Assembly (NCBI GenBank): GCA_014240165.1
Contig: JAAZXM010000006.1
Span: forward strand, 54,708-118,707
DNA: 64,000 nt
Direction of reading: 5' to 3'
Source of the DNA: Myxococcales bacterium
GTDB taxonomy: Bacteria > Myxococcota_A > UBA9160 > UBA4427
Shown here: in pieces, positions 8,622 through 60,718 of the stretch
Position numbering within the stretch: position 1 is the first letter of the stretch
Layout of the letters: every line of letters begins with the position of its first letter
The notes under the pieces: model-generated
What the model was told of the DNA's origin: nothing
Seen by the model: the letters and a program-made list of their open reading frames with translations, nothing else
Databases searched by the model: none
Program-made: the position numbers and the translations under genes

Positions 8622-10073
8622 TTGAGTTCGAAAGTATTGATCGTTGATGACGAAGATCTGATCTGCAGCATGCTGGATCGCGTCCTCCGCCTCGAAGGTT
8701 ACGAAGTCGAAACCTCGACCAAGCCGGAGGAGGGGTTGAACCTGCTCAAGCAGACCGCCTACGACGTCCTGCTGACCGACCTCCACATGAGCGGGATGAA
8801 CGGGCTGGAACTGCTCGGACGGGCTCGAAGAATCCAGCCCGCATGCGATGTCGTGATGATGACTGGCTATGCCTCGGTCGAAACCGCCAAAGAGGCGATC
8901 AAGCTCGGAGCCATCGACTACATCACAAAACCCCTGGACATCGAGGGTGAGCTCAAGCCCCTGCTCTCGAGCATCATGAACTCGGAAGCCGACCAGGACG
9001 AGCCCGGGGAAGACCTCGAGGATCCCCGCACCCAGGATGCCTGGGGCGATTTCGTTGGGCGGGGCGAGGCCACTCTGGGGCTTCTGAAAAAAGTGACGAA
9101 GGTCGCCCACTCGGATGTCCCGGTTCTGCTCCAGGGTCAATCCGGCACGGGCAAGGAAATGGTATCGGGGCTTCTCCACAAGCTCTCGCGACGCTCGGAG
9201 CGCCCCTTCATCAAGGTCAACTGCGCCGCCCTGCCCGAGACTCTTCTCGAGAGCGAACTTTTTGGACACACCAAGGGTTCCTTTACGGGCGCGACCAGCG
9301 ACCGGGACGGGCTCTTCAAGGCGGCCGATGGGGGAACCCTTCTCCTCGACGAAATCGGCGAGATCTCCCTGACCTTCCAGCCCAAACTCCTACGCGTGCT
9401 GCAAGACGGCGAATTCCACCGAGTGGGCGATGCCCAGCGGGCGGTCAAAGTCAACGTTCGCATCATCGCCGCGACCAACCGCGATCTCGTCAAGGCGGTT
9501 CGCACGGGCGATTTCCGGGAAGATCTCTACTACCGCTTGAACGTTGTCCCCCTCGAGATCCCGCCCCTCCGTGAACGCATCGATGACCTCGAGGATCTCC
9601 TCGAGCACTTCATCGCCCAGGCGGCGCGCAAACATGTCGGCTACCCGAAGGTTCAGTTTTCTGAAGAGATCGTCCGCGTCTTGAACCGCTACCCCTGGCC
9701 GGGAAATATCCGGGAGCTGGCGAATGCCGTGGAGAGCGCCACCGTGCTGGCCGAGGGAACCCAAGTGCGCCTCGCGGATCTTCCCCTGGCCATTCAGGAC
9801 TTCGCTCGAAGCCTGGGCGAGGAAGTAGGCTCAAACGACGACATGCCCCTGGGCGCAACGCCTGCAGAGACCCTGGAAGAGATCGAGATGCGCTGCATCA
9901 TCCAATCGATGGTCAAGACCGGCTTCAACCGAACACGTTCCGCCGACCTTCTCGGCGTCACCCGTCGCACACTCAGCTACCGGATCAATAAATACGATCT
10001 GGAGGACGAACTCGCTCGCCTCCAGGAGGCCAACGAGAAGGAATCCCAGGCGCCGGAAAATACGGCGAACTGA
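8622..10073 (+). CDS. Sigma-54-dependent response regulator (NtrC family enhancer-binding protein)
   Basis: Receiver domain (KVLIVDDE...LLTDLHMSGMNG). AAA+ domain with GQSGTGKE and GSFTGA (a GAFTGA variant). C-terminal HTH LLGVTRRTLSYRINKY. TTG start. Confidence 0.9.
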   Translation: MSSKVLIVDDEDLICSMLDRVLRLEGYEVETSTKPEEGLNLLKQTAYDVLLTDLHMSGMNGLELLGRARRIQPACDVVMMTGYASVETAKEAIKLGAIDYITKPLDIEGELKPLLSSIMNSEADQDEPGEDLEDPRTQDAWGDFVGRGEATLGLLKKVTKVAHSDVPVLLQGQSGTGKEMVSGLLHKLSRRSERPFIKVNCAALPETLLESELFGHTKGSFTGATSDRDGLFKAADGGTLLLDEIGEISLTFQPKLLRVLQDGEFHRVGDAQRAVKVNVRIIAATNRDLVKAVRTGDFREDLYYRLNVVPLEIPPLRERIDDLEDLLEHFIAQAARKHVGYPKVQFSEEIVRVLNRYPWPGNIRELANAVESATVLAEGTQVRLADLPLAIQDFARSLGEEVGSNDDMPLGATPAETLEEIEMRCIIQSMVKTGFNRTRSADLLGVTRRTLSYRINKYDLEDELARLQEANEKESQAPENTAN

Positions 10074-16787: not shown

Positions 16788-17948
16788 ATGACCGCACCCG
16801 ATCAAGACCCCATCCTGGCCCCGCTTTCCTCCGTACCCCGTCGTCTCTTGGGTCCGGGGCCCTCCAATGTCCACGCTCGCGTCCGCGAGGCCATGGCTCA
16901 GCCGCTCCTGGGGCACCTCGACCCGGATTTCCTCGCGATTCTCGACGGCGTTCAGGACGCGCTGCGCGAACTCTTCGGAACCGAGAACCCCTTTACCCTC
17001 CCCCTTTCGGCTACCGGGAGCGCCGGGATGGAGGCCTGCCTGGTCAACCTTCTGGAACCGGGCGACCCCATCGTCATCGGCGTCAATGGTGTCTTCGGTG
17101 GGCGCATGGCGGACGTCGCCAGCCGCGCCGGCGCCCAAATCACGCGAGTCGACGCGCCATGGGGCTCCCCGCTGGATGAAGGAGCCATGGCCGAGGCCAT
17201 TCAAAATACCCGTCCCAAGGTCGTTGCCTTCGTGCACGCGGAGACCTCCACCGGGGTTCGGCAGGATCCCGAGGCGATCGCACGAACCGCCCGGGAGGCC
17301 GGCGCCCTGGTGCTTCTGGACTGCGTCACCTCCCTGGCCGGGATTCCCGTGGAACTCGATCGATGGGGGATCGACGCCGCGTATAGTGGCACGCAGAAAT
17401 GCCTGGCCTGCCCTCCGGGACTCTCGCCGGTGAGTTTCTCACCCCGCGCCCTCGAGACCGTCGCCGCGCGCCAGACCCCGGTCCAGAGTTGGTATCTCGA
17501 TGTCGGTCTGCTCAACGGGTATTACGGAGGCGAAAGGGTCTACCACCACACCGCCCCGATCTCGGCCATCTACGGCTTGGCGGAGGGGCTTACCCGAATT
17601 CGCGAAGAGGGCATGGAAAAACGAACCGCCCGCCACGCGAACGCTGCCCGCTACCTCCTCGAGCGGCTCATTCCCCTGGGCTTCAGTCCCCTGGTGGCCG
17701 AGGAAAACCGCCTCCCCATGCTCACCACGCTACGACTGCCCGATCGGGTCAACGCCCTGGGCGAAGCGAGCGTCCGAAGCGCCCTGCTTGGGCGCCACGG
17801 CATCGAGGTCGGCGGCGGCCTCGGCGAACTCGCCGGAAAGGTTTGGCGGGTGGGCTTGATGGGCGACAACGCCAGCGAAGAATCCGTGGACGCACTCGCC
17901 GAGGCGCTTGAAGAGGCGCTCGAAGAGGCGCTTGAAGCGAGCCCCTGA
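16788..17948 (+). CDS. Class V aminotransferase (alanine-glyoxylate / serine-pyruvate type)
   Basis: LLGPGPSNV start, SGTQKCL (PLP lysine) and overall AGXT-like pattern. The C-terminus carries an EALE repeat tail. Confidence 0.85.
   Translation: MTAPDQDPILAPLSSVPRRLLGPGPSNVHARVREAMAQPLLGHLDPDFLAILDGVQDALRELFGTENPFTLPLSATGSAGMEACLVNLLEPGDPIVIGVNGVFGGRMADVASRAGAQITRVDAPWGSPLDEGAMAEAIQNTRPKVVAFVHAETSTGVRQDPEAIARTAREAGALVLLDCVTSLAGIPVELDRWGIDAAYSGTQKCLACPPGLSPVSFSPRALETVAARQTPVQSWYLDVGLLNGYYGGERVYHHTAPISAIYGLAEGLTRIREEGMEKRTARHANAARYLLERLIPLGFSPLVAEENRLPMLTTLRLPDRVNALGEASVRSALLGRHGIEVGGGLGELAGKVWRVGLMGDNASEESVDALAEALEEALEEALEASP
17901..17936 (+). repeat. 12-nt in-frame tandem repeat x3 (GAGGCGCTYGAA) encoding EALEEALEEALE
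   Basis: Read directly at the 3' end of the aminotransferase gene. Confidence 0.8.
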
Positions 17949-17981
17949 ACCGGCCTCCGAGAAATACCCGGCGCGGAGGGA

Positions 17982-18056
17982 TGGCATCCCCAACGGGAAT
18001 CGAACCCGTGTCGCCGGCTTGAAAGGCCGGTGTCCTAACCGCTAGACGATGGGGAC
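17982..18056 (-). tRNA. tRNA-Glu (anticodon UUC), CCA encoded
   Basis: Manual cloverleaf: GTCCCCA/TGGGGAT acceptor (G1-U72 wobble), D arm GTCT-AGCGGTTA-GGAC, anticodon arm CCGGC-CTTTCAA-GCCGG, T arm ACGGG-TTCGATT-CCCGT, then G-CCA. 75 nt. Confidence 0.9.
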
Positions 18057-18202
18057 GCATCCATTCGTGCGCGCGGAGTATGACCCAGCTTCCGAGCATC
18101 GCCAGTTCCCAGCATCACTGCGGACCACGAGGCTCCGGCCCGCGAGCGCGATCGGCACCCCGCGCTCCCGCTTCCTGCCCGTAACGCGGTACCATTCGCG
18201 CC

Positions 18203-19132
18203 ATGGTGGAAAAGCAGATTCAGATCGAGCGCGCCCAGAACCTCTGGTCGAATTTCGCTCGCAGCGAGGAACTCATCGCCAGGGCCAGCCAGATTACGCC
18301 CGCCCCACAACTGGGCTTCGAGCGCATCGGAGGCCTGCCCGATGCCAAAGACGAGATCCTCACCTACGCCTGCGCAACGACGAACCCGGAGGTCTACTCG
18401 AATTGGGGAACCTTCCCCCCTTCCGGCCTGCTCTTGATCGGACAGCCCAGCAGCGGCAAAGGCCTGCTCGCCCAGGCGCTGGCGACCCAAACCGAAACCT
18501 CCTTTCTGCGCGTGGATGTCCCCCGCCTTGCCCTGGACGTCGTCCACTCCGGGGGAAAGGTCGGCGAGCTCATCCAACGCTGGACCCAGACCCTGGAAGA
18601 GATGCCTCGGCTGACCGTATTCTTCGACGAACTCGAGTTCTCCCAGGCGCACGACCTCGGCGGCCCGCGCCCCGACCTGCCCGTAGGACCCATCATGGAT
18701 TTTCTACTCGAGTTGATCGATCGCACCATCGCGTGCGAAGGACATCTGGTGGTGGGCTCAACCGGTTTTCCCGACACCCTGCGCCACGCCTTCGCGCGAC
18801 CCGGCCGACTCGAACGCATCGTCGAAGTCACGCCCAGCTATCCCGATGACGTGATCGCGGCGCTGGAAATTCACGCCGCCGATGCCGAAGCTCGCGCCGG
18901 CCGTCCCCTCTTCGACCAGGTGGACTGGAAACGGGTCGTTGGCCAGGCCCAGGATGGGAGTACCGGGGATTGGGTCCGACTGCTCCATGGGGTACTCCGC
19001 CACAAGGCACGTGTGGAGGCCTCAGGCGAATCCGCCGCATCAATCACAACGGCCGATCTCGATGGCGAGGTGGGCCGGTTCAGCCAAGCCCAGCGGCGGA
19101 TCCGCGTCTCCCGCGGCGGCAACTACGTCTGA
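18203..19132 (+). CDS. Stand-alone classic-clade AAA+ module with degenerate nucleotide-binding motifs
   Basis: Aligns by eye to the FtsH/Cdc48 AAA core. Walker A is GQPSSGKG (the canonical T/S is G). Walker B is VFFDELE. The sensor-1 position is GSTGFPD (Asn lost). RPGRLER is retained. Confidence 0.7.
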   Translation: MVEKQIQIERAQNLWSNFARSEELIARASQITPAPQLGFERIGGLPDAKDEILTYACATTNPEVYSNWGTFPPSGLLLIGQPSSGKGLLAQALATQTETSFLRVDVPRLALDVVHSGGKVGELIQRWTQTLEEMPRLTVFFDELEFSQAHDLGGPRPDLPVGPIMDFLLELIDRTIACEGHLVVGSTGFPDTLRHAFARPGRLERIVEVTPSYPDDVIAALEIHAADAEARAGRPLFDQVDWKRVVGQAQDGSTGDWVRLLHGVLRHKARVEASGESAASITTADLDGEVGRFSQAQRRIRVSRGGNYV

Positions 19133-19383
19133 ATCCGAAGGCCGTCCCGGACCACGCGAACCATCGGCAAATGGCCCGCAAACCCCGCTGATCCGCGGCT
19201 CAAAGCGCGTTCGAAAAGGCCCAACTCGGGTGTTCCGATGAACTTCCAACCGAGTTTGCTCAACGCCCGCGCCCTAAGCAGCAAGAATCGAAAACGAAAC
19301 TAACGAGATCGGCCCGCATGGCCGATACTTGGGGGGAGAGCGATCGACCCGGTAAGCGGGTTTCCGTGCCCGAAAGAGGAAAA

Positions 19384-20511
19384 ATGCATCCGCACACCGT
19401 GCTCTTCGTCGACGATGAGCCCAATATCCTGAAAGCCCTCCAGCGCATTCTCCGCAACGAGCGGATGAATGTCCTCACAGCATCCAATGCCGAAGAGGCG
19501 CTCAATATCCTCGGGCACACCGAGGCCCAGGTGGTGGTCTCCGACCAGGACATGCCCGAGATGAGCGGCGTGGAATTGCTTGCGCGCGTGCGCGACCACC
19601 ACCCCGCCACCATTCGCATGATGCTCACGGGCTTTACGGCGATGGACGTCGCGGTGGAAGCCATCAACCGCGGCGAAATTTTCCGGCTGATCACCAAGCC
19701 CTGGAATGACGAAGAACTCAAGATCATCCTCCGCCAGGCCTTCGATCACTACGACCTCAAACACGAGATCCGGCGACTGAACCAGGTCACCCGCACCCAG
19801 AACTTCAGTCTCCAGGACATGAACAAGAGTCTCGAGGCCAAGGTTCGCGAGCGCACCCGGCAACTCGACGAGAAGAACCACGAACTGCGAACCGCCTATA
19901 TCCAGACGATCCGGGCGCTGGCCGAGGCCATCGATGCCAAGGATACCTATACCCGCGGCCATTCCGAGCGAGTCGCGGTCTACGCCTCTCGAATCGCCCG
20001 CAAGATGAAACTCGAGACGCCTCTGATCGAGCGCGTGTACTTCGCGGGACTCCTCCACGATGTGGGCAAGATCGGCATTCCCGACGCCATCATCACGAAA
20101 CCCGATCGCCTGGACGACGAGGAGTACGAAGAGATCAAGAAGCACCCGGAAATCGGCGCAAAGATCCTCGAACCCGTCGAGTTCCTCCGCCAAATCGTGC
20201 CCTGCGTACGTCATCATCACGAATGGTTCGACGGCTCCGACCGGGGCTACCCCGAAAGGCTCGTCTCTCACGCCATTCCCCTGCCCTCTCGGATCATCCT
20301 GGTGGCCGACACCGCCGAGGCCATGACGAGCGATCGCCCCTACCGAAAGGGGCTGCCCCTGAATCGTGTGACTGCGGAGCTTCGAAAATTCTCAGGCAGC
20401 CAATTCGACCCTGTCGTGGTGGACGCTTTCCTTGAACTCCTCGAAGAAGAAGGAGACGGCTTCCTCTCGAAGAGCCAGAAATTTGATATTTACGAGTTCA
20501 TTGAGGGCTGA
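19384..20511 (+). CDS. Response regulator with HD-GYP c-di-GMP phosphodiesterase domain (RpfG-like)
   Basis: Receiver domain (VLFVDDEPNIL...VVSDQDMPEMSG). HD-GYP motifs LLHDVGKIGIP and HHEWFDGSDRGYP. GAGGAAAA Shine-Dalgarno sequence before ATG 19384. Confidence 0.9.
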   Translation: MHPHTVLFVDDEPNILKALQRILRNERMNVLTASNAEEALNILGHTEAQVVVSDQDMPEMSGVELLARVRDHHPATIRMMLTGFTAMDVAVEAINRGEIFRLITKPWNDEELKIILRQAFDHYDLKHEIRRLNQVTRTQNFSLQDMNKSLEAKVRERTRQLDEKNHELRTAYIQTIRALAEAIDAKDTYTRGHSERVAVYASRIARKMKLETPLIERVYFAGLLHDVGKIGIPDAIITKPDRLDDEEYEEIKKHPEIGAKILEPVEFLRQIVPCVRHHHEWFDGSDRGYPERLVSHAIPLPSRIILVADTAEAMTSDRPYRKGLPLNRVTAELRKFSGSQFDPVVVDAFLELLEEEGDGFLSKSQKFDIYEFIEG

Positions 20512-20531
20512 TCCGCACTCCGGGGAACGAC

Positions 20532-21572
20532 ATGCAGCGAACGAAGGAAAGCAAGCGACACCTCGAGAACCGCTCCCGACTGGAAGGTTTGGGATTCGGC
20601 TCCGATTCCATCCTGATGAGCGATCCCAAGCTCTTCTTGGACAGCGCCTTCCTGGCCATTGTGACCGCTGAGTTCCAACAGGAACTCGGCGAGGACTGCA
20701 GCCGCCAGGCCCTGCTGGAGATCGGTCGCCATCACGGGCTCTGCGATGCGATTCGAACGCTCTCCGCCGCATCCACCGGAGACGGAGATGCCGGATTTCC
20801 GCCCGCTCAAACCGGGCCCCACCTCGCCATGCAATTTGCCTCGCCACCTCGGCCCGCACAGGAGTTCGTGCTCCAGGGCAGTTGGCCCGAATGCCACGAG
20901 GCCCGAGCTCGACTCTCCCGCCTCACCCATACGGACGGACCCAGCTGTTTTCTGAGCGCGGGCTATACCGCCGGCTGGCTGGCGGAGATCTACGACGCCG
21001 AGGTCGAGGTGGTGGAGACCGTATGTGAGGCCAGCGGAGGCGAGACGTGTCGTTTCGAGGCCCGCATCATGGCTGCCGGCGCGTGCCGAACGGAAACGCC
21101 CCAGCCGAGCCCAGAGAAAGACGCCACCCCGCCCATGGAATTCCCCATCGAGTCTTTCGGTCCCGAAATCACCGACTCCGGCCACCACCCGGACTCGCCC
21201 TCACCCCTTGATCCCGAGGAAGATGCAGTCCAGGTCTGGGGTCCCGTGATGGTGCTTCCCTTTTCCGACCCGGAAGTCGCCGAAACAACCCTGTTGGAAC
21301 TCGAAATGGATTCCCTGAGCAGCGAAATCGGAGCCGTTGTCATCGACCTCAGGGGTCGCTCCCTGGATACGAATCGCGAGCAGGTTCGCCTCGAACGCAT
21401 TCTCAAAGTCATCGCGCGATGGCAGGCCCAGGTGGTCTTTGCGGGGGTTTCGCGCGCGACCGAAGCCACCCTTCAGCGCTTTGACTCGGGATGCCTGGTC
21501 AGCCGGAAGAAGCTGTCCGAGGCGATTGCCGCGGCTTTCCAGATTGCCGAAGCCCAGAGCCACAGCGTCTAG
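20532..21572 (+). CDS. V4R (XylR-N-like) sensor domain fused to a STAS-like domain
   Basis: V4R signature SCFLSAGYTAGWLAEIYDAEVEVVETVCEASGGETCRFE. The C-terminal RsbR-type STAS pattern is VWGPVMVLPFSD...GAVVIDLRGRSLDTN...VVFAGVS. Confidence 0.7.
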   Translation: MQRTKESKRHLENRSRLEGLGFGSDSILMSDPKLFLDSAFLAIVTAEFQQELGEDCSRQALLEIGRHHGLCDAIRTLSAASTGDGDAGFPPAQTGPHLAMQFASPPRPAQEFVLQGSWPECHEARARLSRLTHTDGPSCFLSAGYTAGWLAEIYDAEVEVVETVCEASGGETCRFEARIMAAGACRTETPQPSPEKDATPPMEFPIESFGPEITDSGHHPDSPSPLDPEEDAVQVWGPVMVLPFSDPEVAETTLLELEMDSLSSEIGAVVIDLRGRSLDTNREQVRLERILKVIARWQAQVVFAGVSRATEATLQRFDSGCLVSRKKLSEAIAAAFQIAEAQSHSV

Positions 21573-21601
21573 GCGTAGTCCAGCCTCGACCGAGACTCAG
21601 C

Positions 21602-23095
21602 ATGTCTTTGCAGCAAAGCGAAATCAAGCAATCGGATACGCTCGCGGAAACCGGCCTTCCCCGCGTCCTCGTAAGCTTGTACCGAACGCGTTTTCACGGC
21701 GTGCTGGCCCTGGAAAATCACGCCCAGCGCCGACGCTTCTCCTTCTACAAGGGCTCGCCCGCACTCGTAGAATCCACTGCGTCCGCGGACACCCTCGAGC
21801 GGCACCTGGTGTCGGCCAACCTGCTGAGCGCAGAGGACTACCGCCCCGTCGCTGAATACGCCGCTCGGAAGGGCGTCGGCGAGGCCACCGCGCTTCTGGC
21901 GCTGAATCGGGTGGACCCCCTGCAATTGCTCGAGATCCTGCGCCTGCGGGTCCGCAATTTGCTCTTGGATTCCATGGACTGGCAAAGCGGTCGCTACACA
22001 CTCTTCCCCGAGAGCCTGGAGAAAATGCCCCAGCAGTCGGACTTGGAACCCCTTCTCTGGGATCCGCCCCCGATCATCCACCAGGGCCTCATTCGCCAGA
22101 TGACGGTGGACCAAATGCTGGACGCCCTCGCCCCCCAGCTTCAGCGCTTCCCCCAAACCAGGCCCGACTTCAACCCGGCTCTGGGCCGACTCCAACTCGA
22201 CAGCCACCATGCAAAGCTGCTCTCATGTTTGGCCAAGGACCGGCCCCTTGCGGACAGTCTCGGACCGAACCTGACGTCGCCCCCGCTGCTCGCCGCGCTG
22301 TGGGTTCTCGATGCCTTGGGGTCGATCGAATTTCGTGATCACTGCCCCGCGAACAACGCGATCGATTTCGAGGCAGAGATCGAATTGATCCAGAAGAGCG
22401 ACGCCGACAAGGCCGATGCGCCCCAATCCGCGCCCTCCACGGCGGCCGCTGCGGACGCCCAGGAGGCCGACACCCTGCGGGCGGAAGTCGATGAACTCCG
22501 GGCCTTGCTGGGCACGGCAAGCCACTACGAAATCCTCGGCGTCGGGGAGGACGCCTCGTCCGGGGCTATCCAGAAGGCCTACTTCGGTGCCGCCAAACGT
22601 TTTCATCCCGACACCCTGGCCCGCCTGGGCCTGCAGGAGATCAAGCGCGAAGCGTCGGAAGTCTTTTCGCGCGTTGCCGAGGCTTTCGACGTCCTCTCGG
22701 ATTCCAATACTCGGCACGACTACGATGCCCCGCGTCGAGGCGAGTTCTCCAACTCCGATGCCCAGCGCGTCGCCCAGGCCGAAACCATGTACCGCAAGGG
22801 CGAGATCCTCCTTCGCATGGGCGATTTCAAGAATGCCCTGGATTTCCTGGCCCCGGCCGTGGAGGTCTGGCCCGAAGAGGCTGCGTACCAGAGTGCCCTG
22901 GGCTGGGCGCTCTACAAGCAGGCGGCATCGGATCCAAAATCCGCGCGCGAGCACCTCACCCGAGCCGTGGAACTCGACCCCGACGATGCCGTCGCTCATT
23001 TTCGGCTGGGGATGGTATTCCGCGCCCTGGGCGAAAACCGAGCCGCGACGGATCTGCTCGAGCGTGCGAAGGAACTCGAGCCCCCGGCCGAATAA
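21602..23095 (+). CDS. DUF4388-like N-terminal domain + J domain (HPD) + TPR repeats
   Basis: J domain SHYEILGVGEDAS...AAKRFHPD...DVLSDSNTRHDYD. C-terminal TPR-like repeats. The N-terminus resembles DUF4388 (LPRVLVSLYRTRFHGVLAL...WQSGRYTLFP). Confidence 0.75.
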   Translation: MSLQQSEIKQSDTLAETGLPRVLVSLYRTRFHGVLALENHAQRRRFSFYKGSPALVESTASADTLERHLVSANLLSAEDYRPVAEYAARKGVGEATALLALNRVDPLQLLEILRLRVRNLLLDSMDWQSGRYTLFPESLEKMPQQSDLEPLLWDPPPIIHQGLIRQMTVDQMLDALAPQLQRFPQTRPDFNPALGRLQLDSHHAKLLSCLAKDRPLADSLGPNLTSPPLLAALWVLDALGSIEFRDHCPANNAIDFEAEIELIQKSDADKADAPQSAPSTAAAADAQEADTLRAEVDELRALLGTASHYEILGVGEDASSGAIQKAYFGAAKRFHPDTLARLGLQEIKREASEVFSRVAEAFDVLSDSNTRHDYDAPRRGEFSNSDAQRVAQAETMYRKGEILLRMGDFKNALDFLAPAVEVWPEEAAYQSALGWALYKQAASDPKSAREHLTRAVELDPDDAVAHFRLGMVFRALGENRAATDLLERAKELEPPAE

Positions 23096-23116
23096 CCCGG
23101 AACAGCGGCGTGGGGA

Positions 23117-24127
23117 TCAGTTCCCGCCGGCCTTCAGCAAGCCCGCCGCCGCCGCATTGGGCTCCACTCCCAGACGGCCTGGCTGGACAATGTCTTCGCG
23201 CCAGGTGCTCAAGCGGAGGGCGAAAGGCACTCCCCCGGCTCCCCGGTAGAAATAACGCGCCCGGACGTCCCCCACCCGGCTATAGGGGCCCTCCAGCCCG
23301 TATGCCCGCGCTTCCGCGTCAAAGCGCGCGAAGAGCCCGACCTCTGCGGGTGACAACTTCAACTCACCCACTACCACGCCCCGGGGCAGCGCGTAGAGCG
23401 CCGAGAGATTCGGATCCGAGAAAGCCGCGCCCCCGGCCACGCGCGCACCGAGTTTCCGTACTTCGTCGGTGGTGCGTTGCATGATCGATGCCCCCAGGAC
23501 CGGGTGGGCCGCATAGCCCAGGGCATGCCCGAGTTCGTGCAGCACGGTCCCGAGAAGTTGGTCGTCTCCCAGGGCCACGGGCCTGCCCAGAGCGTCCCGC
23601 TCCTGCCGGTTCAAGTAGATCGAAGCCCAGCGGATCTCCGCCGGAACCCGACCCTCCCGAAGCACGACCCGCCCGCCTTCGGTCGCGATGGCGCAATCCG
23701 CCAGGGCGTTGCCCGAACCCGTGGGCGAACCCGGGCCCGCCGACACGAAGCGCAGTTCGAGGCGAGCCTCGGCGGGCTCGACCTCACGGAAAGCGACCCC
23801 AATGCCGGCGCTGGACCAGGCCTTCAAGGCCAAGCGCAGAATCCGCAATTCCCGCGGATCCGCATCCGGCGGAAGCGAAACCGGGATGGGCTGCTGGACC
23901 GACCAGCGGCAGAGAAAGAGCACCAGGCCCTCGCCATAGGGTGCCATATGGGGCGGCGAATCCGAGAGCCTGGAGTCTCGCACCACCGGCAGGCTGCCCT
24001 GCTCTTCGGAGAGATCAGTGACTTCCCAGCCTCCGAGGGACGGGGCGCAGCCCGGCACCGTGACGAGCACGAGCAGGCCGAACCCGAAGGCTTCAAGAGT
24101 ACGACTCAAGGGACGACGGTTCGGCAT
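23117..24127 (-). CDS. Zinc metalloprotease lipoprotein (HExxH, metzincin-like)
   Basis: Lipobox LVTVPGC and VLHELGHALGYAAH. Start taken at ATG 24127 inside the 23117..24319 ORF. Confidence 0.7.
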   Translation of the reverse strand: MPNRRPLSRTLEAFGFGLLVLVTVPGCAPSLGGWEVTDLSEEQGSLPVVRDSRLSDSPPHMAPYGEGLVLFLCRWSVQQPIPVSLPPDADPRELRILRLALKAWSSAGIGVAFREVEPAEARLELRFVSAGPGSPTGSGNALADCAIATEGGRVVLREGRVPAEIRWASIYLNRQERDALGRPVALGDDQLLGTVLHELGHALGYAAHPVLGASIMQRTTDEVRKLGARVAGGAAFSDPNLSALYALPRGVVVGELKLSPAEVGLFARFDAEARAYGLEGPYSRVGDVRARYFYRGAGGVPFALRLSTWREDIVQPGRLGVEPNAAAAGLLKAGGN

Positions 24128-24143
24128 TCTGGGGATCTTCCGT

Positions 24144-26111
24144 TCAGCGCACGATCCGGAGCGGCCCGGGATCGGCATCGCTTTCAAAGCCGAAGATCTG
24201 AGCGTAGAAATAAAGTTCGCCTTCCAGGGCGGCGCGGATATTCGCCGCCTTGCGAAAGCCGTGTTGCTCGCCCTCGAAAGCCACGTAGGCGTGGGGGATC
24301 CCGCGAAGAGCAAGTGCATCCACCATGGCCTGGGCCTGATTGGGCGGAACGATGGCGTCCTCGAGCCCCTGGAAGAAGGCGATGGGGCAGTTCAGACGCT
24401 CGGGAAAATGAATCGGGGAACGTGCCCGGTAGGTTTCACGCGCCTCGGGATAGGGCCCGACCAGCCCATCGGTGTAGCGTGCCTCGAATTTATGCGTGTC
24501 CCGAGCAAGCGCCTCCAGGTCTCCGATCCCGTAATGACTGGCGCCGGCTCGAAACGTGTCGTGGAAGGTGAGCGCGCAAAGCGTCGTGTACCCCCCGGCG
24601 CTCCCGCCGCTGATGGCCAGGCGGTGGGCGTCCACCCGTCCGTCTGCCGCCAGGGCCTCGGCGGCCGCGACACAATCCTCGACATCCACCACCCCCCACT
24701 CGCCGCGGAGGAGTTCGCGGTACGCCCGCCCGTATCCCGTCGAGCCGCCATAGTCCACGTCCACCACCGCGATGCCGCGGCTGACCCAATATTGAATGCG
24801 AAGGTCCAGGGCCGTAGAAGCCGCCGCGGTGGGCCCCCCATGGCTCTTCACCAACAACGGGGGCCGCTCCGCAGCCGGCGGCTGTCCGTCCCGGCGCCGA
24901 GGCGCATAGAGCCAGCCATGGGATCGCCGACCGCCCGCAGATTCGAATTCGAAGGCCTCCGGGGCGACCAGGGTCGAAGCTTCGAAATCCAGGCTCGAAC
25001 CGCGCCGGAGTTCACGCGGGCGGCCGTTGGCGAGGTCCAGAGCGACCACCGCCGAAGGCCGATCCGCGGCCGAAGCGATGAAACAGACCCGCTCCCCTTC
25101 GACTTGAATCCCCTCGTAGCCGCTATAGGGCAACTGCAGGTCTTCGAGCCTTCCCGAGAGGCAATCGAGGCGGCCCAAGCGACTTCGCCCCCCAACCCCA
25201 TGGACGCAGAGGATCGCTTCCTCGGACAGGAACGCGTAGCGCGAGAGACCGAAAACCCATTGCGGGCCCGCGAACTCCTCGGATCGGCCGCATAGGGCCG
25301 CCACTTCCCCATCCGCCCGCAGCGCGTACAGGTTCCACCAGCCGCTCCGATCCGAAATGAAGGTCAAGCGGCCACCCGGAGAGAACCGAGGCTGAAAAAT
25401 CGACTCGGACGCTCCCCCCGCGACGGTCCGTGCCTCGCCCGCGGGCCCCTCCCGGCTCCATTTTTGAATGAAGAGCGTCGTGCCATCCCAAGGCATATTC
25501 GGGTGCTGCCAGGCCGTATAGGCCAGCATCGAGCCATCCGGAGAAAACACCGGAAAGCTGTAGAAATCGTATCCCTCGGCAATCACCCGGGGCGCCTCCA
25601 CCTTTGGCGGAAGCCCTTGCTCGGGCAGGCGGAACACAACCAGGCGATTTTCGGGTTCCCGCCCCTCTCGGGGCCGCTCCTCCACGGCCACCAGCGCGTC
25701 TCGTCCGGGGGTCACCGCGAAATCGGCGTAGCGTGCACCCGGGGGCGAAAGCGGCGCGGAGCGGCCATCCCGGCTGGCATGGATTCGCTGATCGGCGAAA
25801 TCGACATAGAAGAGCCATTCCCCCGCCACCGCGTAGTCGCCCCCGCCGTACTCGTGCACCCGGGTACGCACGTTGGCCGAGGTGGGCGTGACCTCCTGGG
25901 AACCCGGCTGGGCAGCTGCAAAAGCCTCGCGGGCGAGCATCACCTGCTGGCGACCCCCCTCCGCCGGCCGCCCCTCGAGCCAGTAGACCGCACCCTCGCG
26001 AATCCGCGGCTGGGATAGACGCAGCGAGGCCTCGGCCAGACCCGCGGCGCGAATCGGGGAGGACCAACTTCCGTAGGCGGAACTCAAGATCGCCGCTCCC
26101 GGACGGGCCAC
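24144..26111 (-). CDS. S9 family serine peptidase (prolyl oligopeptidase/dipeptidyl peptidase type, beta-propeller + alpha/beta hydrolase)
   Basis: Catalytic GGSAGGYT (GxSxGG), GLEDAIVP (Asp) and GEQHGF (His). Confidence 0.85.
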   Translation of the reverse strand: MARPGAAILSSAYGSWSSPIRAAGLAEASLRLSQPRIREGAVYWLEGRPAEGGRQQVMLAREAFAAAQPGSQEVTPTSANVRTRVHEYGGGDYAVAGEWLFYVDFADQRIHASRDGRSAPLSPPGARYADFAVTPGRDALVAVEERPREGREPENRLVVFRLPEQGLPPKVEAPRVIAEGYDFYSFPVFSPDGSMLAYTAWQHPNMPWDGTTLFIQKWSREGPAGEARTVAGGASESIFQPRFSPGGRLTFISDRSGWWNLYALRADGEVAALCGRSEEFAGPQWVFGLSRYAFLSEEAILCVHGVGGRSRLGRLDCLSGRLEDLQLPYSGYEGIQVEGERVCFIASAADRPSAVVALDLANGRPRELRRGSSLDFEASTLVAPEAFEFESAGGRRSHGWLYAPRRRDGQPPAAERPPLLVKSHGGPTAAASTALDLRIQYWVSRGIAVVDVDYGGSTGYGRAYRELLRGEWGVVDVEDCVAAAEALAADGRVDAHRLAISGGSAGGYTTLCALTFHDTFRAGASHYGIGDLEALARDTHKFEARYTDGLVGPYPEARETYRARSPIHFPERLNCPIAFFQGLEDAIVPPNQAQAMVDALALRGIPHAYVAFEGEQHGFRKAANIRAALEGELYFYAQIFGFESDADPGPLRIVR

Positions 26112-38934: not shown

Positions 38935-39528
38935 ATGTCATTATTTGGTAATCGAACCGCCAAGAACGACGCCACCGACGAGGGGGCCCAAACGAAGCCA
39001 GAGGGCTCCGGAGCGGCCAAGGGCGCGGGGGCCAAAGACGAATCTCGGACGAGCCGGAGCAGGGGCTTCGGAAGGACCGAGGGAAAGCAAGACGGCGGTT
39101 CGCCGTCCTCCAGGGGGAATTCCGTGGCAACGATAGGAAAGTCGATCATCTTCAAAGGCGAACTCACGGGCAGCGAAGATCTCGAGATCAACGGGACCGT
39201 CGAGGGCGATGTCAAACTTCCGGACAACACCCTGATCATTGGCCAGACCGGGCAAGTCAAAGCCTCGGTTTCCGCCAAATCCATCCTGATCGTGGGCAGG
39301 GTCAACGGAGACGTGACCGCCACCGAGCGTATTCAGCTCGAGGCTTCGGGCATCGTGGACGGTGACCTCCGAGCTCCCAAGCTGCTGGTCGAGGAAGGCG
39401 CCGTCATGAACGGGACAGTGGAAATGACGACGCGTCCGGCGGAGACCACGAAAGCAGCCGGGACGTCGGCGAGCCGAACCACTAGCGCGGCTTCGGAGAC
39501 CAACCCCGCGTCGCCACCGGCCAACTGA
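38935..39528 (+). CDS. Bactofilin (polymer-forming cytoskeletal protein) with disordered termini
   Basis: Core beta-helix pattern IGKSIIFKGELTGSEDLEINGTVEGDV...ILIVGRVNGDVTA...GIVDGDL...GAVMNGTVEM. Confidence 0.85.
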   Translation: MSLFGNRTAKNDATDEGAQTKPEGSGAAKGAGAKDESRTSRSRGFGRTEGKQDGGSPSSRGNSVATIGKSIIFKGELTGSEDLEINGTVEGDVKLPDNTLIIGQTGQVKASVSAKSILIVGRVNGDVTATERIQLEASGIVDGDLRAPKLLVEEGAVMNGTVEMTTRPAETTKAAGTSASRTTSAASETNPASPPAN

Positions 39529-45096: not shown

Positions 45097-45375
45097 TCAG
45101 CCTGCCCCGTCGGTCTCCAGAAGGGAGCCGAGTTCGCTGACGGCCTGCTCGGCATCCGCGCCCTCGGCGCGGATCTTGAGAGTGCTGCCATGTTCCGCCG
45201 CCAGGGAGAGAATCGACAATATGCTGCAACCGCTGACCCATTCATCGCCCCGCCCCACCGTAATTTCGCTGGTAAAACGATTGGCCAGGGAAACGAATTG
45301 CCCGGCCGGGCGAGCGTGTAGACCGAGTTCGGCGCGCACCTTGAAGGAGCGCTCGACGACGCCGTCGGCGGTCAT
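45097..45375 (-). CDS. ptsH: Phosphocarrier protein HPr/NPr
   Basis: GLHARPA (His15 region) and a Ser46-like region, GCSILSILSL. Confidence 0.85.
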   Translation of the reverse strand: MTADGVVERSFKVRAELGLHARPAGQFVSLANRFTSEITVGRGDEWVSGCSILSILSLAAEHGSTLKIRAEGADAEQAVSELGSLLETDGAG

Positions 45376-45785
45376 CAGGCGCCCTCTTCCGGGAGAATCT
45401 GGCTGGCTACGGAGATGTTCCGCTGACCGTAATCCTTGATGAAAATCGCCAACTCTTCGAGGCTCTTGTTGTCCTTGAGAGTCGCCAACTTCACCAACAT
45501 GGGCAGGTTCATCCCCGTCACGATCTCGACGTGATGCTCGTCGTGGAAGGAGAGCGCCACGTTCGAGGGCGTCCCGCCGAACATATCGGTGAGGATCAAC
45601 ACGCCGTCACTCTCGTCAGCGCTGCGGATCTCGGCGAGGATTCTCCCGCGCATTTCCTCGAGCTTTTCCGAAGGATCGAGGGAAATCGACCGAATGCCTT
45701 CGACATCCGGAACGATCAGCTTCAGGGCGCGAAGAAATTCCTTGCCGAGATCGCAGTGCGTCACGATGACCACGCCCACTGCCAT
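45375..45785 (-). CDS. PTS EIIA component, mannose/fructose family
   Basis: MAVGVVIVTHCDLGKEF (active-site His) and TDMFGGTPSN. Start at ATG 45785 overlaps the rapZ stop by 1 nt. Confidence 0.8.
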   Translation of the reverse strand: MAVGVVIVTHCDLGKEFLRALKLIVPDVEGIRSISLDPSEKLEEMRGRILAEIRSADESDGVLILTDMFGGTPSNVALSFHDEHHVEIVTGMNLPMLVKLATLKDNKSLEELAIFIKDYGQRNISVASQILPEEGA

Positions 45786-46654
45786 CAGGCTCTCTCCACA
45801 TCTCGATGGACCACGCCCACCTCGCGCCCCATCTCCCCCAGCCAGGCCGCGATGGCTTCGGTGATCGCCACCGACCGGTGGCGCCCGCCGGTGCATCCGA
45901 TACCGATCGTCACGTACGCTTTTCCTTCATCATCATAGAGCGGCAACATATAGGCGATGAATTCCTTCAGACGCCCAAGAAATTCGCGTCCGCGAGCGCT
46001 CTCCAGAACGTGGTCGGAAACGACTTTTTCGCGACCCGTCAGATCTCTCAATTCCTCTTCGAAATAGGGATTGGGGAGGAAGCGCATGTCGAAGAGCAAC
46101 TCCACCGCCTGGGGAGTACCGTAGCGAAAGCCGAAGGAAATGAGGCTGATCACCGTGGGGCGCCTGTCCCCCAAGATATGGGCCGTAACGCTCGCCTTGA
46201 GATCGTGGACATTCAGGCTGGTGGTATCGATGATTTGATCTGCCAGGGCGGCCGCATCCGCCAACAGCGCCCGCTCGCGCGCAACCCCCTGGGCCACGCT
46301 GCCCTCGGGCGACAAGGGATGTACCCTACGCGTCTCCCTGTAGCGCTTTCCGATCACCTCGTCGGCACAGTCGAGAAAGAGCACTTCCACCCGTCGACCC
46401 GAAGCTTTTATATCCGCCGCCACGGCGGGAAAACTCCGCAGAAAACGCTCCTCCCGGGCGTCCACCGCCAGGGCGATGCGCTCCACCGGCGGGTTGGACG
46501 AAGCACATAGATTGATGAATTGGCTGACCAACTGGGCAGGCAAATTGTCGACGCAGTAGAAGCCGAGATCCTCCAGGGCCGCCATGGCGGTACTCTTTCC
46601 GCTCCCCGAGAGTCCGGCGACGAAAACGAGATGCGGTACAGCCGCCCCACTCAT
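45785..46654 (-). CDS. rapZ: RNase adapter protein RapZ (YhbJ family P-loop NTPase)
   Basis: VFVAGLSGSGKSTAMAALEDLGFYCVDNLP and C-terminal GCTGGRHRSV. Confidence 0.9.
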   Translation of the reverse strand: MSGAAVPHLVFVAGLSGSGKSTAMAALEDLGFYCVDNLPAQLVSQFINLCASSNPPVERIALAVDAREERFLRSFPAVAADIKASGRRVEVLFLDCADEVIGKRYRETRRVHPLSPEGSVAQGVARERALLADAAALADQIIDTTSLNVHDLKASVTAHILGDRRPTVISLISFGFRYGTPQAVELLFDMRFLPNPYFEEELRDLTGREKVVSDHVLESARGREFLGRLKEFIAYMLPLYDDEGKAYVTIGIGCTGGRHRSVAITEAIAAWLGEMGREVGVVHRDVERA

Positions 46655-47214
46655 GAATTCCCCCCTTGCGCGGCCCGACCCATACCGGCCGAGCGCGATT
46701 TCAGCCGGTCATCAAGGCGTCGCGCGGCATTCACCCCCCGGCGACGACTCTGAAAATCGAGCGTCGCCACCTCGATCAGGGTCGCCATGCTCCGGGCCGG
46801 CCGCACCGGCAGGGTCAGTACGGGAACCAGCACCCCAAGCACTTCTTCCTGCGGCCGCTCGAGACCGATCCGCTCGTACTCCACGCCCTCTTGCCACGCC
46901 TCGAGCCGACAGATCAAATCGAGTTGCACCTGGTCAAGAACCGCATCGGCACCATAGAGTTCCTCGATCTGGAGCAGGCCCACGCCCCGCAATTCCATGT
47001 AGTGCCGGATCAGTTCCGGAGATCGGCCGATCACCACTGGCTCCGAAGCATCGGTCTGGCAGAGTTCCAGCCGGACCACGTCGTCCGCAACCAGTTTATG
47101 CCCGCGCTGAACGAGCTCGAGCGCGCATTCGCTCTTGCCGACACCGCTCTCACCCTGAACCAACACCCCGACCCGGTGAACCTCGACCAGTGAGGCGTGT
47201 ATCTGAAGGTCCAC
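46651..47214 (-). CDS. hprK: HPr kinase/phosphorylase, short form (C-terminal catalytic domain only)
   Basis: GESGVGKSECALEL Walker A and ELRGVGLL. At 187 aa it lacks the N-terminal domain of the Firmicute enzyme. Confidence 0.85.
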   Translation of the reverse strand: MDLQIHASLVEVHRVGVLVQGESGVGKSECALELVQRGHKLVADDVVRLELCQTDASEPVVIGRSPELIRHYMELRGVGLLQIEELYGADAVLDQVQLDLICRLEAWQEGVEYERIGLERPQEEVLGVLVPVLTLPVRPARSMATLIEVATLDFQSRRRGVNAARRLDDRLKSRSAGMGRAAQGGNS

Positions 47215-47261
47215 TGCGCTCTCCCCACCCCGCTTCAGCGCGCTCGCCCTTCCGGGGGCAT

Positions 47262-47726
47262 TCAGAACTTCTCGTCTTCCCCCTCGATCACCTTCAGCAC
47301 TTCGTCGAGACCCGCAGCCTCGCTGAGCTGCTTTCGAAAGTCATCATGCCGACAGAAGCGGGAAATTCGGGCCAGCGCCTTGAGATGCTGGCGGCCCCCG
47401 GCGTGCTCGGGAACGACCAGGAGAAAAAAGAGATGAGTCGGCTGGCCATCGATCGACTCGAAATCCACGCCGGCACCACTTCGTGCGAAGCCCGCTACGA
47501 GGCCATCCAGACCGGGCAACTTCCCGTGAGGAATCGCCACACCTTCCCCGATCCCCGTGCTCTGAAGCGCCTCGCGCTCCCGAAGCACCTCGAGCAGACG
47601 ATCCGCATCGACGGCGGGCACAGCCGCCGCCAGCGCCTGGGCCATCTGCCCAAGAACCTCGTCCTTGTTGTCCGCAACCACGTCCAGAATGACCGCATCC
47701 CGAACGAGGATATCCATGATCCGCAT
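47262..47726 (-). CDS. ptsN: PTS EIIA-Ntr
   Basis: STGIGEGVAIPHGKL (phospho-His region) and FFLLVVP. Confidence 0.85.
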   Translation of the reverse strand: MRIMDILVRDAVILDVVADNKDEVLGQMAQALAAAVPAVDADRLLEVLREREALQSTGIGEGVAIPHGKLPGLDGLVAGFARSGAGVDFESIDGQPTHLFFLLVVPEHAGGRQHLKALARISRFCRHDDFRKQLSEAAGLDEVLKVIEGEDEKF

Positions 47727-47762
47727 GCCGCCTCCTTGCTTGGCGGCCGGAAATCTATCTCA

Positions 47763-49349
<1,587 letters not shown>

Positions 49350-49741
49350 GCAGTCGGTCTTCTTCCTGTACGGGTTGGACAAAGGCTAGCGGGAAACCCA
49401 CTCCTATTGTCACGACCGTTATACCCATTTTCTTGAGCGCTGAATGCAATTTCGGTGCTTTCCGGATGACTTAGGAGAAGTCTGCCCGCTCTGCTGCCAA
49501 ATACCGCTCAAGCCTTGCTCAAGTCCGAGAGAATTCCGTTGGGACTGCGAGAAATTCAGGTCTGCGAGAAGTCTCCGCTGCTTCAGGCGCAGAGACGGCC
49601 CGAGGGCCAAGCAGAAAAACGCTGGGAAAAAACCCGAGGCGAGCAAGACAGGGGCCCCTGGGGTCGTCTGGACACATCGCTGCCCGCGCTGCCCCGGGGA
49701 GGCCAGGCCCAGTGAGAGAGCGCTCTGGGCGCTGGGCGCGA

Positions 49742-59789: not shown

Positions 59790-60080
59790 TCAGGCCTGGG
59801 GAATGCCGCCACCCGAAATCAGGCTCCGGACCATCTTCCACCAGAGTTCGAGACGAAGCGTCTCCTCGAAGCGTGGAACCGGAGCGGGCAACGGGCTGGG
59901 ATCCCCCAGGAAGTCGCGAAATTCGTCCACGTCGAAGCCGCTCAATTCCTCACGCGAAAGAGAGGCCAACACGTCCGACACTTCACGCTCCAGATCGAGA
60001 GACCGAAATTGGGCCGGATCTCTCCTCTCGGCGTTCTTCAGACACAGCTGTCGCCAGCCGAGCTCAACTTTCTCTCTCAT
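59790..60080 (-). CDS. Small protein translationally coupled to the ECF sigma factor (possible anti-sigma/partner)
   Basis: ATG 60080 overlaps the sigma-factor stop (ATGA). 96 aa, acidic, with no TM helix or zinc motif seen. Confidence 0.5.
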   Translation of the reverse strand: MREKVELGWRQLCLKNAERRDPAQFRSLDLEREVSDVLASLSREELSGFDVDEFRDFLGDPSPLPAPVPRFEETLRLELWWKMVRSLISGGGIPQA

Positions 60081-60718
60081 CGAGCCTGCGCCTCCCCACC
60101 GGACTCGATCGCATCGAAAATCAGCTTCTTGATGCGATAGAGGCTCGAGCGCACAGCGTCGTTGGAGCGCGCGCTGCATTCGGCAATCTCAGGAATCGAC
60201 ATATTCTCGAGGTGTCGCATTTCAAAGATTCGCCGCTGCCATTCCGGCAGTTTCGCCATCCGGCTGCTGATCGCGTGGGCATAGCGCTGGAGCGAAAGAT
60301 CCTCGTCCGGAGCACCCTGCCCAATGGAAGGCTTGGGCGTGAAATGCTCCTTGTCGACGCTCTCGAAACGTTCGCGCTGGTTTTGCGAGCGACGGATCAT
60401 GTTGTTCGACAGGTTCTTGGCGATTCCGAACATCCAGGACAGCAGTGACGACTGCCCCCGATAGTTCTCGATCGACCGAAAGATCGTGACGAAGGTTTCC
60501 TGGGTCACTTCCTCGGCGTCCGCATGATTTCGGAGACGTCCGTGAACAAAGCTGTAGATACGCTTGAAATAACGCTCGTAAAGCTCGTTGAAATGAGCCT
60601 CACTCGGTTGGCGAACGCCATCGACCAGTTCCTGATCACTTAGACTGGCAAGTGATCTCTCAACAAGGCCGCCTGGGCCGCGATTCACTGCTCCGGCGCA
60701 AAGGTTTTCTACGGGCAA
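60077..60718 (-). CDS. ECF-type RNA polymerase sigma-70 family factor
   Basis: Region 2 (EEVTQETFVTIFRSIENYRGQSSLLSWMFGIAKN) and region 4 (LPEWQRRIFEMRHLENMSIPEIAE). TTG start with a GGAGGA Shine-Dalgarno sequence. Confidence 0.85.
   Translation of the reverse strand: MPVENLCAGAVNRGPGGLVERSLASLSDQELVDGVRQPSEAHFNELYERYFKRIYSFVHGRLRNHADAEEVTQETFVTIFRSIENYRGQSSLLSWMFGIAKNLSNNMIRRSQNQRERFESVDKEHFTPKPSIGQGAPDEDLSLQRYAHAISSRMAKLPEWQRRIFEMRHLENMSIPEIAECSARSNDAVRSSLYRIKKLIFDAIESGGEAQAR

Follow-up and report, generated by a model that had tools for sequence, protein, structure and literature searches.

A conserved three-gene signaling unit encoding a REC-HD-GYP phosphodiesterase, a predicted sensor-STAS protein and a PATAN-J-TPR protein in uncultured Myxococcota

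We analyzed a DNA stretch of 64,000 nt (hereafter the window; positions 54,708 to 118,707 of contig JAAZXM010000006.1, Myxococcales assembly GCA_014240165.1; G+C content ~63%), which harbors three adjacent genes on the plus strand, here termed g1, g2 and g3. They encode a response regulator with an HD-GYP phosphodiesterase domain, a cytoplasmic protein predicted to join a ligand sensor to a STAS domain, and a protein composed of a PATAN-containing (DUF4388) domain, a J-domain and TPRs, respectively (Table 1). An earlier note, made from the sequence of the window, had described these genes as a probably co-transcribed signaling cluster. Our data indicate that g1-g2-g3 is a real signaling unit, all parts of which are familiar. 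With moderate confidence we interpret it as a lineage-specific cytoplasmic second-messenger operon; it is likely a cyclic di-GMP (c-di-GMP) phosphodiesterase module with two inputs, phosphorylation and a ligand, and is probably tied to motility.

Conservation and layout of the three genes

The spacers between the genes are short, 20 nt for g1/g2 (20512-20531) and 29 nt for g2/g3 (21573-21601), and agreed exactly with those given in the earlier note, as did the gene coordinates. For g1, both a ribosome-binding site (AAAGAGGAAAAATG) and the N-termini of homologues speak for the start at 19384. A longer open reading frame (ORF) of g1 beginning at 19318 was rejected as unsupported, as it starts within the promoter-like element described below. 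Likewise, a longer g3 ORF beginning at 21491 overlaps g2 and obtains no support from the N-terminus of the family.

One genome per species was scanned (185,579 species), which yielded 106 relatives, the best 80 of which were analyzed by tblastn with the proteins of the window. All 80 are metagenome-assembled genomes (MAGs) of uncultured 'Myxococcota', 'Deltaproteobacteria' or 'Myxococcales', plus some bins labeled Spirochaetaceae. This set includes UBA9160, the MAG after which a class of Myxococcota_A is named (10.64898/2026.07.10.737566). Many of the loci (L011, L013, L014, L018, L020, L029, L033 and others) bear the title 'uncultured Spirochaetaceae/Spirochaetales bacterium' in public records, which is probably a mislabel of one bin series.

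All 74 loci with sufficient contig had g1, g2 and g3 in this order on one strand; six of the 80 loci were truncated by contig ends, and there was no counter-example. Because the order was retained in all 74 informative species genomes, the adjacency of the three genes is beyond chance. Identities to the proteins of the window ranged from 69 to 91% for g1, which showed the highest conservation in the neighbourhood, from 32 to 57% for g2 and from 28 to 62% for g3 (80 species). The 79 loci carrying all three genes did not contain any insertion between them. In these loci g1 and g2 were at most 59 nt apart (median 16 nt). The median distance between g2 and g3 was 50 nt; two outlying values resemble assembly or start-site artefacts. 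The outer flanks and the distance between g1 and an upstream AAA ATPase gene vary from locus to locus, whereas the spacings within g1-g2-g3 remain those of an operon. Co-transcription, as proposed earlier, is in keeping with the persistence of the short spacings across the 79 loci and with the sole conserved promoter-like element found, which lies in front of g1.

More distant loci were also informative. L087, whose g2 is 26-27% identical, retains g1-g2-g3 together with the gene for an M10-like protein. The sister-clade loci L088, L090 and L092 (g2 identity ~26-27%) retain g1-g2 in an otherwise different neighbourhood. In L088 and L090, start and stop codons of the two genes overlap by 4 nt; L092 has a spacing of 7 nt. 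In all three loci the next gene after g1-g2 is a convergent AAA_18/dCMP-deaminase gene, whose homologue in the window is 17 kb distant. Since the sister clade retains g1-g2 without g3, the pair g1-g2 is the evolutionary core, and g3 is an accessory that was added in the main clade.

Domain make-up of the three proteins

The REC domain of g1 (Response_reg, 84.5 bits; Pfam cut-off 30.2) is joined to its HD-GYP domain (HD_5, 122.6 bits) by a conserved helical linker. In 79 orthologues the REC residues D10-D11-E12, D54, T82 and K106 were conserved to at least 95%, and so were the HD-GYP motifs LLHDVGK, which includes the HD dyad, RHHHEWFDGSDRGYP and TSDRPYR; the consensus of the GYP motif was RHHHEWFDGxxxGYP. 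V-cGAP3 (8e-36), PmGH (2.8e-32) and PA4781 were identified as solved relatives, and the alignments to V-cGAP3 and PmGH covered the full domain. Judged by its sequence, the assignment of g1 as a phosphodiesterase is solid. V-cGAP3, the closest solved relative, is a 3'3'-cyclic GMP-AMP (3'3'-cGAMP) phosphodiesterase of Vibrio cholerae. Against the NCBIfam model NF053512, which represents c-di-GMP phosphodiesterases of the NosR response regulator family, g1 scored 369.9 bits and thus remained under the curated cut-off of 400. NosR is a Burkholderia regulator linked to nitric oxide, and neither a NosP nor a NahK gene was detected near g1. Owing to the score, g1 was not regarded as a NosR orthologue but as a generic RpfG-type protein.

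With RpfG-type proteins (Xanthomonas RpfG, PmGH, PA4781, V-cGAP3) g1 shares the REC-HD-GYP layout, the phospho-acceptor pocket and the HD...HHExxDGxGYP metal site. rpfC adjoins rpfG, whereas g1 is not linked to a cognate kinase gene, always has the V4R-STAS gene next to it and possesses a C-terminal tail (20440-20508, residues ~353-375). This tail follows the HD-GYP domain and contains a conserved FDIxxF motif, which is present in the sister clade too (KFDIWKFLD in L088). The tail might serve as a peptide on which g2 or a TPR domain docks.

V4R was the sole Pfam match of g2 (41.9 bits, cut-off 31). A profile built from 34 members of the g2 family matched the entire aromatic-sensor (A) domain of MopR, PoxR and DmpR/CapR with E-values from 3.4e-18 (MopR) to 3.8e-10. 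Residues C139, E162, C165 and C173 of g2 align with the zinc ligands C155, E178, C181 and C189 of MopR (numbering according to PMC9556785) at identical spacing. The resulting pattern Cys-X22-Glu-X2-Cys-X7-Cys was invariant in all 82 sequences compared, and so was W118, the counterpart of the MopR pocket residue W134. The V4R ligand sensor recognized in the earlier note is therefore present, but the claim has to be refined: the region corresponds to a complete A domain of the MopR/DmpR type with a zinc site and not to V4R alone. While g2 shares the XylR_N-V4R fold, the zinc site and the pocket Trp with MopR, PoxR, DmpR and XylR, its output domain is STAS; that of the latter proteins is an AAA+ sigma-54 activator module with a helix-turn-helix (HTH) domain.

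The sensor is connected to the C-terminal part of g2 by a disordered linker. Sequence models did not identify a STAS domain there: Pfam (PF01740/PF13466) gave no match, and a phmmer search of residues 225-346 against the PDB was empty. In the AlphaFold model, however, residues 230-346 reached a predicted local distance difference test (pLDDT) value >90, and Foldseek aligned the C-terminal part with RsbS of B. subtilis (6jhk, template modeling (TM) score 0.71) and Moorella (3zxn, 0.74) and with SpoIIAA (0.65-0.69); further matches were stressosome chains and STAS domains of SLC26 proteins. Moreover, P0355, a distant member of the g2 family, has a Pfam STAS call. As far as can be judged from the model, the C-terminus of g2 is a four-stranded STAS fold of the RsbR/RsbS type, despite the failure of the sequence models, which bears out the earlier description of the second gene as a V4R protein with an RsbR-type STAS domain. 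At the phospho-site column of this domain (start of helix 2), whose equivalence we infer from a motif alignment, Glu was found in 60, Asp in 8, Thr in 3 and Ser in 2 of the 82 sequences; g2 of the window has Thr (T280). The g2 family is small, with 242 representatives at E<=1e-3 and 43 at 1e-30 among 1.84 billion proteins.

For g3, the composition DUF4388-J-domain-TPR that had been read from the sequence was confirmed by Pfam matches for each part: DUF4388/PatA_N with 39.5 bits (cut-off 25) at residues 13-147, DnaJ with 56.4 bits (cut-off 27.8) and several TPR models. The HPD motif (H335-P336-D337) is invariant. The structure model (mean pLDDT 89) shows a folded N-domain of ~240 residues (~10-250), which a disordered linker (252-279) separates from the J-domain and the TPR unit; the latter matched three-repeat TPR modules. 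The N-domain is comparable in extent to the PATAN construct of PixE (residues 1-258; 10.1101/2021.06.11.447907). A G/F region, a zinc-finger and DnaJ C-terminal domains were not found in g3, and the match to TIGR02349 spans only positions 2-83 of 354. Because the J-domain alone of the DnaJ features matches, g3 is classified by its sequence as a class C (type III) J-protein. Like the PatA-type regulators PixE, PixG and Slr1594 of Synechocystis and SgnC of M. xanthus, g3 has an N-terminal PATAN/DUF4388 domain of ~250 residues, with protein docking as the output. In these regulators the domain is joined to REC, whereas g3 joins it to a J-domain and TPRs, and there are no pilus genes near g3.

In some genomes g3 appeared to be interrupted. 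It was called as two genes in L005 (2233-3744; a PatA_N protein of 270 aa and a DnaJ-TPR protein of 230 aa), while L004 (9105-10616), a longer contig with an identical g2, contains one gene of 503 aa. In L087, an assembly at 3x coverage, g3 appears frameshifted. The split and frameshifted versions in L005 and L087 are probably assembly errors.

Database annotations of the three proteins read hypothetical, 4-vinyl reductase or DnaJ-domain protein. The earlier note had not recognized a described module with these parts, and our literature search (PATAN+DnaJ+TPR, V4R+STAS, NosR+HD-GYP) likewise found no description of g1-g2-g3. We found no account of the fusion of a MopR-type sensor to a kinase-independent STAS domain, of the obligatory coupling of this fusion to a REC-HD-GYP enzyme, of the combination PATAN-J-TPR or of the strict conservation of such an operon in one large uncultured lineage.

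Promoter-like elements upstream of g1

An alignment of the 260 nt in front of g1 from 78 loci disclosed two promoter-like elements, which are located 30-110 nt upstream of the gene (L006-L085). The class A element has the consensus CTAACG-N15-GCCGATA[C/G], with N14 in some loci, and was present in 44 distinct sequences. One of these is the window, where the element reads CTAACG-N15-GCCGATA(C) and is situated 57 nt in front of the start codon. The class B element (consensus TGGCACG-N4-CTTGA, i.e., TGGCAC-N5-yTG) was detected in 23 loci. The two classes were mutually exclusive, the sole exception being L071, which contains both motifs. In the background, CCGATA alone has a frequency of 0.035 and class B one of 0.004 per 260 nt. 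CTAA-N16-18-CCGATA gave a single match in the window (expected 0.06), and the bipartite class A element occurred 43 times upstream of g1 and three times elsewhere on both strands of ~1.3 Mb of related loci. In a tree of g1 and g2, each promoter class formed one contiguous block, and the sister-clade outgroup contained a class-B-like site. Only one conserved promoter-like element was found in the operon region, that in front of g1; a scan for generic sigma-70 promoters and terminators gave background levels, and an Rfam scan of positions 17500-24500 revealed no riboswitch in front of g1, its sole match being a tRNA gene.

Class A closely resembles the consensus of sigma-28 (FliA/SigD/WhiG) promoters, for which a -10 region GCCGATAA with a -35 region TCTAAAG (PMC12784957) and the arrangement TAAAGTTT-N11-GCCGATAA (PMC4866697) have been reported. 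Compared with this reference, the final base of the -10 region differs and the spacer is off by one. Class B resembles the -24/-12 element of sigma-54 promoters. These likenesses suggest that a single alternative-sigma promoter drives the operon, and that its type was exchanged once in the evolution of the lineage, being sigma-28-like in the window and sigma-54-like in deeper branches. The operon transcript would begin ~7 nt after GCCGATAC, near position 19335, and would span both gene junctions. Such a switch between a sigma-54-like and a sigma-28-like element in one operon offers a clean case for the study of promoter turnover.

The canonical sequence TGGCAC-N5-TTGCT is present elsewhere in the related genomes, and the window itself encodes RpoN and an NtrC-type activator. 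A canonical sigma-54 promoter (TGGCACCGTTCTTGCT) on the minus strand of L062 (13424-13437), which also occurs in L055, L060, L068 and L070, is conserved in the interval from uvrC to a small ORF preceding a ComEC-like gene. It is unrelated to the operon and was discarded as an element of it.

Proposed mechanism, alternatives and neighbouring genes

In the mechanism that we favor, a histidine kinase encoded elsewhere would phosphorylate Asp54 of g1, whereupon the HD-GYP domain would hydrolyze a cyclic dinucleotide, most probably c-di-GMP. By homology of the pocket, g2 may accept a small ligand of hydrophobic or aromatic nature in a zinc-stabilized cavity of the MopR/DmpR type. Its STAS domain would permanently be in a 'phospho-mimic' state, so that the ligand, and not a kinase, would set the choice of the partner. 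Most probably the co-expressed g1 is this partner, because the tight and sometimes overlapping coupling of the two genes persists across the deepest split; the core pair would be translationally coupled, and the phosphodiesterase would receive two inputs. In the main clade, the PATAN domain of g3 may dock on a target, while the HPD motif of the J-domain would recruit and switch on DnaK and the TPRs would hold the client. The signal would thereby be coupled to the chaperone-driven remodeling of the target, probably a motility or polarity machine.

There are precedents for single links of this chain. The stressosome of Moorella thermoacetica controls a diguanylate cyclase (title of PDB entry 3ztb) and is a precedent for a link between STAS proteins and c-di-GMP turnover. 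In Synechocystis, the PATAN output domain binds PilB1/PilC in the motor of type IV pili, and the PatA-type gene slr1594 shares a transcript with a c-di-GMP EAL gene; PATAN proteins have also been linked to S-motility in Myxococcus (10.1101/2021.06.11.447907). The E. coli phosphodiesterase YhjH (PdeH) is expressed in a sigma-28-dependent manner (PMC4866697). As with YhjH, the gene for g1 is located behind a sigma-28-type promoter sequence and its product would reduce c-di-GMP levels while the motility regulon is active. YhjH, however, is a stand-alone EAL protein, and in our case the sigma-28 type is assigned by sequence and gives way to a sigma-54-like element in deeper branches. The promoters and the PATAN domain point independently to a role in motility or polarity, which we put forward as a hypothesis since no motility gene is linked to the operon. 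Marine Myxococcota MAGs express flagellins; on flagellation of this lineage, the literature yielded nothing clade-specific.

If the mechanism holds true, the phosphodiesterase would merge phosphorelay and cytoplasmic metabolite signals through a STAS adaptor that does not need a kinase, and c-di-GMP signaling would be tied to Hsp70 recruitment by a PATAN domain. The three proteins are expressible in E. coli, and they stem from a large, uncultured and ecologically widespread lineage of Myxococcota whose signaling is almost undescribed. The MopR-type pocket of g2 is furthermore a candidate biosensor scaffold. A more far-reaching version, in which the Glu-fixed and ligand-set g2 acts as a kinase-free STAS switch directly gating g1, while g3 reads its state and sends DnaK to a pilus or motility motor, is in our view unlikely. 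It would provide a direct path from metabolite and phosphorelay via c-di-GMP to a molecular machine whose control is chaperone-driven.

A number of observations weigh against the favored mechanism. Neither the window nor the sampled flanks contained a gene for a histidine kinase, a diguanylate cyclase, a c-di-GMP receptor, DnaK, a pilus or a flagellum. The phenol-anchoring His106 of MopR appears not to be conserved in g2, where the position falls into a variable loop with low pLDDT values in the model; for this reason the ligand is probably other than phenol, while the pocket as such is probably retained. The spacer of class A mostly comprises 15 nt, compared to 14 nt in the cited fliC promoter of P. 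aeruginosa, and there is no sigma-28 gene in the 64 kb of the window. An extracytoplasmic function (ECF)-type sigma factor would be an alternative reader of class A; a candidate consisting of regions 2 and 4 only is encoded at 60077-60718 on the minus strand. Class B reads TTGA where canonical sigma-54 promoters have TTGC, i.e., A for C at -12. The missing g3 beside g1-g2 in the sister clade weakens the case for joint action of all three proteins, and part of the synteny is inherited, as all genomes belong to one lineage. Finally, the closest solved relative of the HD-GYP domain cleaves 3'3'-cGAMP, and sequence cannot separate c-di-GMP from cGAMP enzymes.

The last point leads to the alternative that survives best, a module of the same architecture in which the substrate of g1 is 3'3'-cGAMP or some other dinucleotide, cyclic or linear. 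The cGAMP-specific V-cGAP3 was slightly ahead of the c-di-GMP enzyme PmGH in our search, and the match to the NosR c-di-GMP phosphodiesterase family remained under its cut-off. Yet the gap between the two E-values is small, most characterized REC-HD-GYP proteins act on c-di-GMP, and a cGAMP synthase was not seen nearby. We therefore attribute only a minor probability to another messenger. As to the phosphorylation-controlled c-di-GMP phosphodiesterase proposed in the earlier note, the intact REC and HD-GYP motifs agree with it, with c-di-GMP as the probable rather than the established substrate.

It might also be supposed that the AAA ATPase, g3 and nearby peptidases form a proteostasis unit for quality control or degradation, with g1 and g2 as its regulators. 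A gene for a PAN/Cdc48/FtsH-like AAA ATPase precedes g1 in 63 of 79 loci, most related loci have the M10-like gene converging on g3 (in the window, 21 nt from the g3 stop codon), and an S9 peptidase gene lies nearby in many. The AAA gene, however, is located 74-509 nt from g1 or, with an inserted gene, 1.3-1.8 kb (up to 1779 nt), lies upstream of the sole promoter-like element that is conserved, and does not occur in L090 of the sister clade. The M10-like protein scored under the Pfam cut-off and has a lipobox-like VPGC (…VTVPGC…) near its N-terminus; it looks like an exported lipoprotein and would reside in another compartment. In the case of the S9 gene, variable genes intervene. A proteostasis unit is accordingly very unlikely.

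Highly improbable, too, is that g1, g2 and g3 are neighbours by descent only, in a slowly rearranging core region and without a joint function. Such a scenario would suit the origin of all 80 genomes from one uncultured Myxococcota-like lineage, the frequent retention of unrelated neighbours (AAA, M10-like, S9 peptidase, aminotransferase and dGTPase-like HD genes) and the lack of g3 in the sister clade. But the flanks are subject to rearrangement: the distance from AAA to g1 has a bimodal distribution with insertions, and the aminotransferase and dGTPase-like HD genes near the operon occur in some loci only and are gone from most. The three genes, by contrast, were never split, kept operon-length spacings and share a single conserved promoter-like element, and in a wholly different neighbourhood the sister clade still retains g1-g2, with a 4-nt overlap in two of three loci.

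Stressosome-like or anti-anti-sigma partner switching, with g2 as an RsbR or RsbV that phospho-cycles to free a kinase or an anti-sigma factor, fits the RsbS/RsbR-type STAS fold, the label 'anti-anti-sigma regulatory factor' given to some homologues by the Joint Genome Institute (JGI) and the Thr at the phospho-site of the window's g2, but it is the least credible of all alternatives, because the phospho-site is acidic in 68 of the 82 sequences (Ser/Thr in five), which makes classical partner switching by g2 unlikely. Pfam analysis of ~70 ORFs of the window, intergenic ones included, revealed no RsbS or RsbT partner, in line with the earlier note, and no second STAS gene, GHKL kinase (RsbT/RsbW type), PP2C or adjacent sigma factor was found there or in the annotated related loci. 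RsbR/RsbS stressosomes, including that of Moorella (3ztb, 3zxn), thus resemble g2 in combining an N-terminal sensor with a C-terminal STAS domain, but differ in their RsbS, RsbT and RsbX genes, for which there is no counterpart here, in the phospho-site, and in the partner enzyme, which in our system would be a phosphodiesterase and not a cyclase.

Table 1. Features of the window and the evidence by which they were assigned
Feature	Position	Strand	Evidence
g1, response regulator and HD-GYP phosphodiesterase, 375 aa	19384-20511	+	ORF, Pfam
g1 REC domain	~19399-19728	+	Pfam Response_reg
g1 HD-GYP domain	~19915-20418	+	Pfam HD_5
g2, predicted cytoplasmic sensor-STAS protein, 346 aa	20532-21572	+	ORF, Pfam V4R, profile and structure search
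g2 XylR_N-V4R sensor, MopR/DmpR type	~20580-21080	+	Family profile, V4R match
g2 predicted STAS domain	~21219-21569	+	Structure search
g3, putative PATAN-J-TPR adaptor, 497 aa	21602-23095	+	ORF, Pfam, predicted structure
g3 PATAN-containing N-domain	~21629-22351	+	Pfam PatA_N/DUF4388 (PF14332), model
g3 J-domain	~22523-22741	+	Pfam DnaJ
g3 three TPRs	~22751-23077	+	Pfam TPR models, structure model
Class A promoter-like element	19300-19327	+	Upstream alignment
Single-domain classical AAA ATPase, PAN/Cdc48/FtsH type; operon membership not indicated	18203-19132	+	Pfam AAA, NCBIfam PAN-like
Putative lipoprotein, weakly matrixin (M10)-like; operon membership not indicated	23117-24319	-	Pfam Peptidase_M10 22.3 bits, under cut-off 24
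tRNA gene, between class V aminotransferase and AAA genes	17985-18056	-	Rfam 66.8 bits
rpoN (sigma-54)-ptsN (EIIA-Ntr)-hprK-rapZ-EIIA-Man-HPr cluster	45097-49382	-	
NtrC-type sigma-54-dependent response regulator (REC, Sigma54_activat, HTH_8)	8622-10073	+	
Bactofilin gene	38935-39528	+	
ORF without Pfam match, 396 aa	107-1297	+	
ORF without Pfam match, 959 aa	10868-13747	-	
ORF without Pfam match, 401 aa	13824-15029	-	
ORF without Pfam match, 511 aa	37206-38741	-	

Some further properties of the neighbouring genes were recorded. The Walker A motif of the AAA ATPase has the sequence GQPSSGKG, in which Gly replaces the usual Thr or Ser; its Walker B motif (FFDELE) and arginine-finger region look normal. 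A reading of the locus as a defence system was abandoned, as the PADLOC matches were limited to generic HD and TPR similarity. The NtrC-type regulator of the window is a possible activator for sigma-54 promoters of this genome. The rpoN cluster is overlapped by an ORF of 950 aa on the plus strand (46584-49436), which is without a family match and probably spurious. Of the long ORFs lacking a Pfam match, those of 959 and 401 aa, just upstream of the conserved neighbourhood, also occur as unannotated genes in L002/L003.

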